54,131 nt of DNA from an uncultured archaeon. Lineage in GTDB: Archaea; Nanobdellota; Nanobdellia; Woesearchaeales; CAIVOO01. The stretch is taken from contig CAIMOB010000043.1 of assembly GCA_903842985.1 (NCBI GenBank), positions 1-54,131 on the forward strand, given 5' to 3'. A program made the position numbers. Within the stretch, counting starts at the first letter, position 1, and each line of letters starts with the position of its first letter. Positions 15,001 through 18,000 of this stretch are shown here, piece after piece.

Positions 15001-18000
15001 AAAGAAGATTTGCTGGGAAAGCAGGTTGTTGCTGTTGTGAATTTCCCTCCAAAGCAGATAGCTAATTTCTTATCAGAATGCCTTGTTCTTGGATTTGTGC
15101 TAGAGAATAATGAAGTTGTCCTGCTTCAGCCTGAAAGAGAAATTGCAAATGGATATAGAATTGCTTAATTTAAAATACTAAGAATCTCCTGCAGATTCCT
15201 TTCTGTCATCCTCTTCTTGTACTCTCTTGCCAAATTCATCAATCTTTCCTTGTCTATCTTAAATCCCTTCTTGTCCAAAACAGGCTTCAAAAGCATGATG
15301 TACTGGCAGAACTGGGTAACATTCTTCGGGTCAACTGTCGGCTTGCACCGCTCGAAGTCAACCATAACCGGATGGATGTCAACAATTACATGCTTGTAGG
15401 GGTTGTGCATCTCCTCCTTGTTCAGCTTCATTTTGTCCAAGACAAAGCACTGCCTGAAAACCTCAACAAGAACTTCCCTTATTTTATATTTCAGCGATTT
15501 TTCTATGAATTTCTCTATGAAATCACCTTTAATAAACTCATAAACAATCATGTCCGACGCAATTAAGATAATCTTCGGGCCAATTCCTTTTTTGTTCAGT
15601 TTTTTAAGGACATTTGCCTCACGGTTAACTGTCCCTTCAACCCCAATGTCCTTCCTCTGCACTTTAATTGCAACCTTTCTCCTGTTGTGGATGCCTGTGT
15701 AAATTGTTCCCCTGTGACCTTTCATAAATTTCTTGATTCCTGAAATTCCGTTTTTCTCAAGCCATTTGAGCAAAGAGCTTTTCTTTATCTGGTAGACATA
15801 AAGCGTTTCAAATCCGCCAATGTATCTCTCTTCAAGAAGCTCTGAGACAAATGCACAGTCAGAGATTATTTCATCAACTTTGTCTTTTTTCGTCAGCGAC
15901 GAGAACAAGAGCAAAATGCTTCCTTCTGGCTCCAAATGCTCTGAAGCATCTGCAAGAAACCTTTCAATCACTTCGCAGCCCTTTCTTCCGCCGTCAACTG
16001 TTATGTCCCTGACTTTTACAGAAGGGAGGTAAGGTGGATTGAATATGATTGTGTCAAAGATCTGCTTCACATTCGAAAACAGGTCAGAGGCGCGGAAGAC
16101 AATTTTCTTGTTGTCAATTGCCTTCTGGTTTTGGAGGATAACTTTTCGGTCTATATCAACGGCAAGAACCTTTTCAACGCCTGGCTTCTCAGCTGCTGCA
16201 ACTGCCTGTATCCCAGAACCTGTCCCTACATCAAGCACAAGCCCTCTGGCACACTTTTTGACAAACTTCTGCAGTAAATAAGAGTCTTCGCGCGGTTCGT
16301 ACATAAGAAAGAGGGTGTATTTGGCTTATTTAAATTTATAGTTATTTTCCATATTGAAATAAGTTTTTAATAGTAGTCCTTCTTTTATAATTGCGGGATG
16401 GTTAAAAAACTTAATGTAAATGAGAATTTCTTCAATGAAGAGTCGAATACTATGTTTTACGTTCTTGGAGCTGCGTTCAGATGCTATACAAACAACTATG
16501 GCTCAAATGTTTTTAGGTCAAGACATATGGACCTAGTCGAGATTATTCATTCATCTTTGGAATGCGAGCAGGCAATAAGGGCAGATCCGAGAGGGAAGAA
16601 ATCCTATGTTTTGGAAGTGCACGACAAGGCATTAAGACATTCGCTGGAAAGGTGGGGGCTGGCAGTTGACAAGTCTGAAAGGAAGTTTCCTGTATTTGAC
16701 GCAGAATATCTCCGCTATTTTAACAGGGGATTTTTTGATGCAGTTGGCAGAGTCGTAACAACAAAGTTGGGCAAAAATTTTACAACCATAGTTTTCAACC
16801 CTTATTTTTTGGATGTGTTCAACAAAAGTCTTCAAAACTGTGCAGGAATCAATAGAGAGTACAACGGAAAAGATCTGCTATACGGGCATTACAATTCAAT
16901 TAAACTCCATAATTTTATCTACAACAACCTGGATTCTGCGCCTTACCTGGCATGGAAAAAAGAGCTGTTTAACCTTGACTACAAGCCAACACTGCCCGAA
17001 CGGGCTGTTCCCTGCGAAAAAAAGATTGAGATGGCCAAGGAATTATTGTCAAGAGGCTTGGAAGTCGGGAAAGTCTTGAAAAAATCAGGCTACATTTCCG
17101 AAACCGGCCTGATGCTTACATTCAAAAAATATGTTGGAATCCTGCCTGTGGAATTGAAAAGATTTGCGAATTTCTGTATAAAATACCATTTCTGGAATAT
17201 GATTGGTGCGGAAGGTGCAATGGATTTCTCTGCTCAAAAGCGGCTTGCGCAGTTGGAAGATGAAAAAAGAGGATGGGAAGAAAAAATGGAAAAAGCGAAA
17301 ATTGACATCGCACAAATTTATGAGATAACAAAAGATGAAATGATTAAAAGATATCTGCAGCAGTGAATGCTATTTTATCTCAATCTCGTCCCTGCCTATG
17401 ACGCGTTCGCAGTAATTGCACTTTATCTTTATATTCTCCTTGTCAACTACCCAAAATTTTGTCTTGACAGGCTCGTTATTTGTTATGCAGTTCGGATTTG
17501 TGCATCTGACAATGTCCTCGACAACCTCTGGAAGCTTCGGGGAGAATTTATTCACATCATTGTAATCCTTGATTATATTAATTGTCGCTGTCGGCGCGAT
17601 TATTGCAATCTTATTTGTCTCCTCCTCTGTAAGGAACTTGTCTGCTATTTTGATAATCCCCTTTTTCCTGTATTTACTGCTCTCGAGATTCATGCCGATT
17701 GTCAGCAATTCTTTATGGACATCGAGTATGTCAACTATTTTCAGCGTGACATTCGGCGGAATATGGTCTATGACTGTCCCGTTCGCTATTGCCGGCACCC
17801 TCATTTCCTTCATCATTTTATTGCCCCCAGGACCAGCGAGAGTATTGCCTGCCTCACTGGAATTCCGTTTGCCGCCTGCTGGAAATAATGTGCATAAGGC
17901 GTTGAATCAACATCCATGTCGATTTCATTGACACGTGGCAGCGGATGCAGAATTTTCATTGTTGGCTTTGCCTTTTTCAGCATCTCTTTCTTTAAAATGT

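Follow-up and report, generated by a model that had tools for sequence, protein, structure and literature searches.

The window, a stretch of 54,131 nucleotides from an uncultured archaeon, encodes a protein that joins two enzymes (Table 1). Its reverse-strand frame opens with ATG and contains no internal stops, and its stop codon overlaps that of the convergent csaA (14839-15168, forward strand). Residues 1-175 are a HemK2/Mtq2 methyltransferase; residues 176-379 are a kinase of the ArkI/Ark1 family. The initial annotation proposed this two-enzyme fusion, and the TIGR00537 score, PDB matches, and structure confirm that it is real. Because the same single frame recurs in 195 genomes, the fusion is not an artefact of assembly or gene calling. 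We found no paper describing it.

An AlphaFold2 model built from 99 sequences (pLDDT, 92.7; whole-chain pTM, 0.86) suggests that the two domains hold a fixed orientation, and almost no linker separates them. Complex prediction with the halves as separate chains gave a median of 0.25 against a mark of 0.32. Upstream lies the octamer TTTAAATA, which resembles the archaeal TATA consensus; as a predicted TATA box, it would give the fusion a leaderless mRNA. A scan for sigma-70 promoters and terminators found matches at chance level only.

Table 1. Features of the Mtq2-ArkI locus. Counts refer to 121 fusion homologues or to 157 kinase domains (fused, free, AGT-fused, and other-order copies); Tk, TkArkI; Ga, G. 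acetivorans.
Feature	Position	Strand	Evidence
TATA-box-like octamer, archaeal type	16327..16334	-	23-30 nt upstream of ATG; read from sequence
Mtq2-ArkI fusion, whole CDS, 379 aa	15165..16304	-	120 full-length homologues listed, at 47-92% identity
Class I SAM methyltransferase, HemK2/Mtq2 family, residues 1-175	15780..16304	-	TIGR00537; PDB matches; VIA Z 20.2
Mtq2 N-terminal signature Y2-E-P-R-E6-D7-S8	16281..16301	-	Aligned to EcMtq2 Y4/E5/E8/D9; Y2 121/121, E6 119/121, D7 120/121
Motif I D25-V-G-T-G-S-G31, SAM binding	16212..16232	-	G27, G29 in 121/121
Active-site motif N89-P-P-Y92	16029..16040	-	N89, P90, P91 121/121; Y92 119/121
ArkI/Ark1 (AQ578, COG2112) kinase domain, residues 176-379	15168..15779	-	Sequence and structure matches; strongly basic
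P-loop K195-G196-H-R198-G199 (Tk K32, G33)	15708..15722	-	G196, R198, G199 121/121
K214, beta3 lysine (Tk K51)	15663..15665	-	121/121 fusion homologues; 156/157 kinase domains
E229, helix alphaC (Tk E65)	15618..15620	-	121/121 fusion homologues; 157/157 kinase domains
Catalytic loop K296-E297-E298-M-H-N-P302-Y-K304-H305	15390..15419	-	Aligned to Tk H130-G-Q132...K137 and Ga Ark1
Metal loop D316-F-E-R319 (Tk D149-F-E)	15348..15359	-	D316 157/157
N328-V-T330-Q331 (Tk N160, T162)	15312..15323	-	N328 157/157
Y362-K363-K364 (Tk YKR motif)	15213..15221	-	Y362 120/121, K363 110/121

Mtq2 (HemK2, N6AMT1; Hvo_2744 in H. volcanii) is a release-factor glutamine methyltransferase (PMC6144793, PMC3152332). 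Residues 1-171 score 114.8 bits against the TIGR00537 HemK2/MTQ2 model (cut-off, 87). Their best PDB sequence matches are E. cuniculi Mtq2 (3Q87_B) and human N6AMT1, the latter also a close structural match (VIA-align: Z 20.2, rmsd 2.6, 171 aligned). The fusion keeps the Mtq2 features: the Y-E-P-x-E-D signature, whose EcMtq2 equivalents Y4/E5/E8/D9 are required for eRF1 methylation in a published mutant table; motif I; D50 and D74/L75, corresponding to the SAM-binding D51 and D69/L70 (Ec numbering); NPPY; and single copy, as the fusion is the only Mtq2 in this genome, and likewise the only ArkI. Residues important in yeast Mtq2 are present as Y2, E3, E6, D7, Y9, D50, D74/L75, N89, R160, and E166. 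An aRF1 with the GGQ motif is encoded in this genome, and these sequence features suggest that the methyltransferase half is aMtq2, acting on the aRF1 GGQ glutamine.

Two things set this half apart from other Mtq2 proteins: the carboxyl-terminal kinase, and K13/K16 in place of two acids. The partner Trm112 was not found in this bin. In yeast Mtq2, the acidic helix-1 pair (Ec D15/E18) is required together for eRF1 methylation. The K13/K16 positions, however, are also mostly K or R in the free Mtq2 of the 29 other-order genomes having the motif, and are therefore a lineage trait.

Trm112 matches occur in 83 of the 401 genomes sampled, most genomes of the class having none; two genomes of the same family lack a detected match, as does this one (92.65% complete), in which the usual Trm112 site, upstream of TFB, is unassembled. 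The kinase might then replace Trm112 as the solubilising and activating partner of Mtq2. We regard this as very improbable. Within the order, 36 of the 195 genomes with the fusion and 12 of the 84 without it encode a short Trm112, which often lies 2-3.5 kb from the fusion and scores above the Pfam cut-off in all seven cases tested. Moreover, H. volcanii aRF1 remains methylated without Trm112, and the Thermococcales lack it. Because Trm112 coexists with 36 fusions, the kinase is ruled out as its stand-in.

TkArkI (TK2051, 7VNX; COG2112/AQ578) is a tRNA U47 2'-kinase (PMC9095486), and the kinase half shares its compact, two-lobed ePK-like fold (VIA-align: Z 19.8, rmsd 2.6, 202 aligned). In phmmer searches of the PDB, residues 176-379 match TkArkI (E 9.8e-11) and G. 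acetivorans Ark1 (8YV4/8YV5; E 3e-10), with the next sequence at E 0.31; profile matches to ArkI/Ark1 reach E 4e-24 and 3e-16, with the next at 8e-05. Pfam assigns the domain to no kinase family, NCBIfam gives only weak ThiK/PrkT matches, and the ESM Atlas returns unnamed archaeal kinase clusters at 0.98-0.99. The best structural match is G. acetivorans Ark1 (8YV4: Z 21.4, rmsd 1.9, 166 aligned), a stand-alone protein of 174 aa whose N-lobe is shorter; we take its function from its PDB title.

The hallmarks named by the initial annotation (K214, E229, and D316-F317-E318) are indeed kept, in 121 of 121 homologues. Equivalents of TkArkI K32/G33, K51, E65, K137, D149-F-E, N160, T162, and Y200-K201 are all retained, and the domain is net basic (43 K+R against 24 D+E; pI, 9.8), which may reflect a tRNA-binding surface like that of TkArkI (PMC9095486). 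Of the 14 TkArkI residues probed by mutation, ten are identical; R202 is replaced by K, and R95 by Y255.

The catalytic loop differs from that of TkArkI. The initial annotation set an H-x-P-Y-K-H stretch against the TkArkI H-G-Q triplet, but this was a misalignment: Tk H130-G131-Q132 aligns with K296-E297-E298, and Tk K137 with K304. The fusion thus has K for H130 and E for Q132, and loss of either residue severely cuts TkArkI activity. The same loop occurs in G. acetivorans Ark1 (KEEMNHPDRH, against KEEMHNPYKH in the fusion), which also shares DFER, N-x-T-Q-F, and YKK. Because that protein has KEE, HGQ is a trait of TkArkI rather than of the whole ArkI/Ark1 family. K296 and E298 are invariant in all 157 kinase domains. 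The K-E-E form is probably an RNA kinase, as judged by the PDB titles of 8YV4/8YV5; we found neither a paper on these entries nor an assay of a K-E-E enzyme.

These observations leave some room for an active kinase with a substrate other than U47, whether elsewhere in tRNA, in rRNA, at the end of an RNA, or on a protein (aRF1, for instance). The altered H130 and Q132 equivalents, the missing K-E-E assay, the mesophile-like proteome of this genome, and the eraser KptA/Tpt1, found in none of 201 genomes of the phylum, all lean that way. Nevertheless, this seems unlikely. The remaining ArkI marks are kept (DFE, N-x-T, and YK, with a probable basic surface); the nearest structure, with the same loop, is titled RNA kinase Ark1; and suitable tRNAs are present, nine of the 11 cleanly parsed five-base variable loops ending in U47-C48. 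Nor is a non-thermophile ArkI the novelty first supposed: Up47 or ArkI activity has been published for the mesophiles N. viennensis, M. maripaludis, and N. profundicola. From its sequence, we infer that the kinase half is a U47 2'-kinase for class I tRNA.

A Bud32/RIO-type KEOPS protein kinase, or a dead pseudokinase, is exceedingly improbable. Bud32/piD261, the KEOPS kinase, is likewise small and atypical and lacks subdomain VIII; kae1 (13324-14316) lies 850 bp downstream of the fusion on the same strand; and the HRD/HGD aspartate is absent. However, the window encodes a separate, true Bud32 (41345-41941; 206.6 bits on TIGR03724, cut-off 125), which rules out this identity for the kinase half. 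The fusion has no TIGR03724 match at E 0.001 and is not among the three proteins that do match; kae1 does not recur beside the gene in related loci; and E229, K296, E298, D316, and N328 are invariant in the 157 domains.

The initial annotation also cited WbdD, the E. coli O9a O-antigen methyltransferase-kinase (4AZT), as the best whole-length structural match. The domain order is the same, methyltransferase then kinase, but the domains belong to unrelated families (14-16% identity; whole-chain rmsd, 8.4-10 A). Kinship is ruled out, and the likeness is one of architecture only.

Among the 401 genomes (279 in the order of this genome and 122 outside), 348 encode an ArkI-family kinase. The claim that the kinase is nearly universal in the phylum needs correcting for two families, in which none of the 27 and none of the 5 genomes has it. 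The fusion is present in 195 of the 348 genomes with the kinase and in 195 of 401 overall, and in one order only (195 of 279 inside; 0 of 122 outside), so it is not phylum-wide. Two genomes (G150 and G195) were dropped from the fusion count because a stop codon separates their domains. In two others (G279 and G033) the kinase sits in a long open frame that holds no second domain, and the kinase ORF of G061 is 192 aa.

In this order the genes form the cluster (unknown ORF)-Mtq2-ArkI-AGT, which faces TFB and Trm112. Of 59 unfused loci examined in the order, 49 have Mtq2 upstream of ArkI within 1.5 kb and in the same orientation; in other orders, 0 of 42 loci do. The fusion probably arose because these genes adjoin. 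In six genomes Mtq2 and ArkI share a frame and are separated by a single stop; ArkI is fused instead to AGT in 11 genomes; and four have triple Mtq2-ArkI-AGT fusions. Mapping the fused state requires 21 changes on the kinase tree and 18 on the methyltransferase tree. A single origin is rejected: AU tests (LG+G4, quick trees) exclude a single clade of fused copies for both domains (p-AU 0.00018). For these tests the kinase tree omitted two near-duplicates, two long branches, and the 43 rows from other orders, and the methyltransferase tree two near-duplicates. The fusion has been gained and lost repeatedly, even inside one genus, and both active sites are alike in fused and free copies.

This history bears on whether the two activities are coupled, acting on one substrate or step (for example methylation plus 2'-phosphorylation of tRNA, or kinase-controlled aRF1 methylation) in a fusion maintained by selection. 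Several features would fit: the frequency of fusion in the order and of adjacency in the other loci; the short junction and high pTM; the NPPY motif, also used by nucleic-acid N-methyltransferases; and basic K13/K16 where yeast Mtq2 requires acids. Coupling is nonetheless unlikely. The fusion comes and goes, ArkI joins AGT as well, the genes are unlinked in other orders, and Mtq2 persists in all 17 genomes tested that lack the kinase; K13/K16 occur in free Mtq2 too, and the fused methyltransferase is the sole Mtq2 of this genome. Repeated fusing and splitting of operon neighbours, the joining of ArkI to AGT, and active sites alike in fused and free copies all weaken the initial inference of joint activity. 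The protein is probably bifunctional, as initially proposed, but one joint RNA-modifying activity is not predicted.

The junctions are unequal, Mtq2-ArkI being fused in 195 genomes and ArkI-AGT in 15, and Mtq2 and ArkI stay paired where the cluster has lost other genes, this genome being an example. This excess and the retained pairing may reflect selection for the pair. A larger selected module, Mtq2-ArkI-AGT, is conceivable, with the K-x-E kinase and basic-faced NPPY methyltransferase acting on one RNA or RNP, AGT serving for base flipping or repair, and a permanent internal RNA phosphate unrelated to heat; we consider it improbable. Such a module might, for example, modify tRNA with both enzymes, or shield symbiont tRNA from nucleases and alkylation.

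We consider it probable that two independent, known enzymes, for aRF1 GGQ methylation and tRNA U47 2'-phosphorylation, have been joined repeatedly by gene adjacency. The amino-terminal half would transfer a methyl group from SAM to the GGQ glutamine, presumably on aRF1-aEF1A-GTP. The carboxyl-terminal half, an ArkI of the K-x-E catalytic-loop subtype, would bind class I tRNA by way of a probable basic surface and, where the variable loop has five bases, pass the gamma-phosphate of ATP to the 2'-OH of U47. Since no KptA/Tpt1 eraser was found in the 201 genomes, the mark would be constitutive: in a mesophile, an aid to tRNA folding or nuclease resistance rather than a means of tuning heat tolerance. 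Loss or gain of a stop codon or frame would have joined and split Mtq2, ArkI, and AGT many times, at either junction. The joining looks like neighbouring genes running together, not a new joint activity.

Together, these results reveal ArkI concealed in some 70% of genomes within a large DPANN order, because databases name the methyltransferase half only. Coupled activities would matter far more, but present evidence does not favour them; the locus cleanly illustrates how operon neighbours can fuse reversibly, here at either end of a single gene. Should the product of the kinase be Up47, phosphorylation inside tRNA would count as a core trait in most of the Nanoarchaeia sampled. Up47 would then occur in a probably mesophilic lineage in which the known eraser was found in none of 201 genomes, and the picture of this mark as a reversible heat-tolerance device would be called into question.

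The Mtq2-ArkI protein is a real, unannotated fusion that joins two known enzyme families, both translation-related. Residues 1-171 match TIGR00537 (HemK2/MTQ2) at 114.8 bits against a cut-off of 87, and in the PDB they score best by sequence against E. cuniculi Mtq2 and human N6AMT1. A Pfam search of residues 176-379 found no kinase family; in the PDB this half matches solely T. kodakarensis ArkI (TkArkI; E 9.8e-11) and G. acetivorans Ark1 (E 3e-10), the following match standing at E 0.31, and a profile from 81 kinase domains matches the same two proteins at E 4e-24 and 3e-16. 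An AF2 model of the whole protein (99 sequences; pLDDT 92.7, pTM 0.86) aligns with Ark1 (8YV4, Z 21.4), TkArkI (7VNX, Z 19.8), and N6AMT1 (Z 20.2). Together with the uninterrupted reading frame, these matches bear out the initial annotation, which had proposed a methyltransferase joined to an ArkI-family kinase. WbdD was rejected as a relative (structural alignment reaches only rmsd ≥8.4 Å), as was a Bud32 identity for the kinase half, the true Bud32 being encoded separately. The best 120 database relatives are all full-length (47-92% identity), mostly from Ca. Woesearchaeota, and are named, where at all, methyltransferase or hypothetical protein. The fusion ORF is solitary at this locus: csaA converges on it, the two stops overlapping, and the gene on its upstream side is divergent.

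The methyltransferase half is the sole Mtq2 of the source genome, which also encodes aRF1 with GGQ. Aligned against the table of yeast Mtq2 mutants in Liger et al. (PMC3152332; E. cuniculi numbering), it keeps Y4, E5, E8, D9, Y11, D51, D69/L70, N85, R149, and E154. The acidic pair D15/E18 is replaced by K13/K16, which counts against canonical eRF1 recognition. Basic residues also predominate at these positions in unfused copies and in the free Mtq2 of other orders, kinase-less genomes included, and are therefore a lineage trait.

In H. volcanii, aRF1 is methylated by Mtq2, and Trm112 is dispensable in vivo (PMC6144793). Trm112 was not found in the source bin, where the 5' half of TFB, its usual neighbour, is unassembled. 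Within the same order (Woesearchaeales), 36 of 195 fused genomes and 12 of 84 unfused ones carry a short Trm112, which exceeds the PF03966 cut-off in 7/7 tested. This short form of the Nanoarchaeia (loci L133-L152) lies upstream of TFB in divergent orientation; it exceeds the NCBIfam cut-off in 0/201, yet passes Pfam. Because Trm112 co-occurs with the fusion, the kinase is ruled out as its replacement.

Ohira et al. (PMC9095486) mutated 14 residues of TkArkI. By sequence alignment, ten are identical here (K195, G196, K214, E229, K304, D316, N328, T330, Y362, and K363) and R202 becomes K364; the remaining three differ (R95 to Y255, H130 to K296, Q132 to E298). The TkArkI HGQ triplet had been equated with H-x-P-Y-K-H, but the wrong stretch was aligned: its true counterpart is K-E-E, within a loop (KEEMHNPYKH) matching KEEMNHPDRH of G. 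acetivorans Ark1. Residues K296, E298, D290, E229, D316, and N328 are invariant in all 157 kinase domains compared (58 fused, 46 free from the same order, 10 AGT-fused, and 43 from other orders); the kinase site is thus under constraint and unaltered by fusion. By analogy with the PDB titles of 8YV4 and 8YV5, for which a literature search found no paper, the K-E-E subtype would phosphorylate RNA. The domain is basic (computed pI 9.8). Among 34 tRNA calls in the source genome, five mis-parsed ones being set aside, 11 gave a clean parse with a five-base V-loop; nine of these end in U47-C48, the pattern modified by ArkI (PMC9095486, PMC10159004).

The fusion is probably an aRF1 methylase and a tRNA U47 kinase, acting independently. 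IVYWREL is 0.392 over 654 crude ORFs of the source genome, which by formula corresponds to about 32 C; no reverse gyrase was found in this genome, and the proteome looks mesophilic. ArkI in a non-thermophile, put forward earlier as a novelty, is already published: Up47 or ArkI activity is known in N. viennensis, M. maripaludis, and N. profundicola (PMC10159004).

The survey drew on 401 genomes from a single class of the phylum, each at least 90% complete. A kinase-only profile (E 1e-14) was then run on the 251 genomes that were not among the 150 listed matches, and doubtful fused or unfused cases were settled by inspecting locus sequences. An ArkI-family kinase is encoded by 348 genomes: 274/279 of the same order and 74/122 outside it. 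The fusion occurs in 195/279 and 0/122, respectively. The initial annotation had the kinase nearly universal in the phylum and fused in most genomes; outside the order no genome carries the fusion, and the profile found no kinase in two families (0/27 and 0/5 genomes), although very divergent copies may escape it. Six unpublished genomes (G243, G244, G322, G333, G360, G396) contribute to these counts, four of them to the trees as well; the fusion count is 190/273 without them. Most named relatives belong to Ca. Woesearchaeota or Nanoarchaeota, their records including groundwater and marine ones; of 80 named loci, 70 carry the fusion. About a third of named records (L197 and about two dozen other loci) are titled uncultured Methanosarcinales and have the Woesearchaeal gene cluster; the titles are probably depositor labels.

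That recurrent cluster comprises an unknown 155-aa ORF, Mtq2, ArkI, and AGT (O6-alkylguanine alkyltransferase), with TFB facing it and Trm112 further out. Its AGT consists of the C-terminal domain only (cysteine motif PCHR[V/I]); AGT is absent from the source bin. The ~155-aa ORF is a conserved archaeal one placed directly upstream of Mtq2 in this and other orders; it has no Pfam family, and its Atlas matches are hypothetical clusters only. Free ArkI genes of other orders (L055-L096) mostly form a divergent pair with a ~550-aa secreted-looking protein (40 loci in this protein's cluster) that has weak squalene-hopene-cyclase-like matches; a primase or Cas4-like nuclease is often downstream.

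Several observations fit fusion by adjacency. At unfused same-order loci, Mtq2 lies at most 1.5 kb upstream of ArkI on the same strand in 49/59 cases, mostly abutting or overlapping (loci best-scoring or hand-picked, excluding four fragments at contig edges and two broken loci); among other-order loci it lies close to the kinase in 0/42. ArkI is instead fused to AGT (C-terminal domain only, cysteine PCHRV) in 11 genomes (L097-L107, L172, L175, L278, L309, a locus list that includes triple fusions), and Mtq2-ArkI-AGT triple fusions in four (G020, G065, G075, G152, within the 195). In six genomes a single stop separates Mtq2 and ArkI in the same frame. In G119 (L115:887-2347) all three share one frame, interrupted by a single TGA inside the kinase, which may reflect read-through, a broken gene, or sequencing error. 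Genus g17 contains fused and split forms, and Mtq2 was found in 17/17 kinase-less genomes tested. The fused state needs 21 changes on the kinase tree (at least five forced by strong branches) and 18 on the methyltransferase tree, and neither tree accepts a single fused clade (p-AU 0.00018). Both are quick trees built from short domains, on which repeated fusion and one fusion with many splits look alike. Against adjacency, fusion is far commoner at the Mtq2 junction than at the AGT junction, the Mtq2-ArkI pair persists where the cluster is lost, as in the source genome, and the predicted model suggests a fixed domain orientation.

Features of the window, with examples of the ~155-aa ORF from elsewhere
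Feature	Position	Strand	Remarks
Mtq2-ArkI fusion ORF	15165-16304	minus	379 aa, no internal stops
kae1	13324-14316	minus	KEOPS
bud32	41345-41941	plus	KEOPS
2248-aa protein	24538-31281	minus	FG-GAP, TcdB_toxin_midN, RHS, CARDB
Hanks-type Ser/Thr kinase	18849-20579	plus	TPR repeats
634-aa protein	7336-9240	plus	no Pfam match at E 1e-4
pyrB/pyrI and purine cluster	17370-18736 and 44010-52945		purF-like, purM, purL, purQ, purO
~155-aa ORF	L134:4884-5357		surveyed locus
~155-aa ORF	C12:12138-12671		source-genome contig

Elsewhere on the contig, kae1 and bud32 are separate genes 27 kb apart. The 2248-aa protein, large given the small genome, is likely surface or polymorphic-toxin-like; the 634-aa protein appears by eye Rossmann-like at its N-terminus and propeller-like at its C-terminus. 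The small source genome keeps nucleotide biosynthesis.

The Mtq2-ArkI fusion is apparently undescribed: no description was found in the non-subscription literature on ArkI/Ark1 (AQ578/COG2112), archaeal Mtq2, DPANN fusions, and AGT fusions. The main text of Ohira et al. (PMC9095486) never uses the words methyltransferase, fusion, DPANN, or Woesearchaeota; its supplementary ArkI distribution figure may list such homologues. KptA/Tpt1, the eraser of the tRNA 2'-phosphate, was found in 0/201 genomes (control matched in 3/14). Through the fusion, ArkI emerges as a trait common in a DPANN class that is probably mesophilic and lacks the known eraser.
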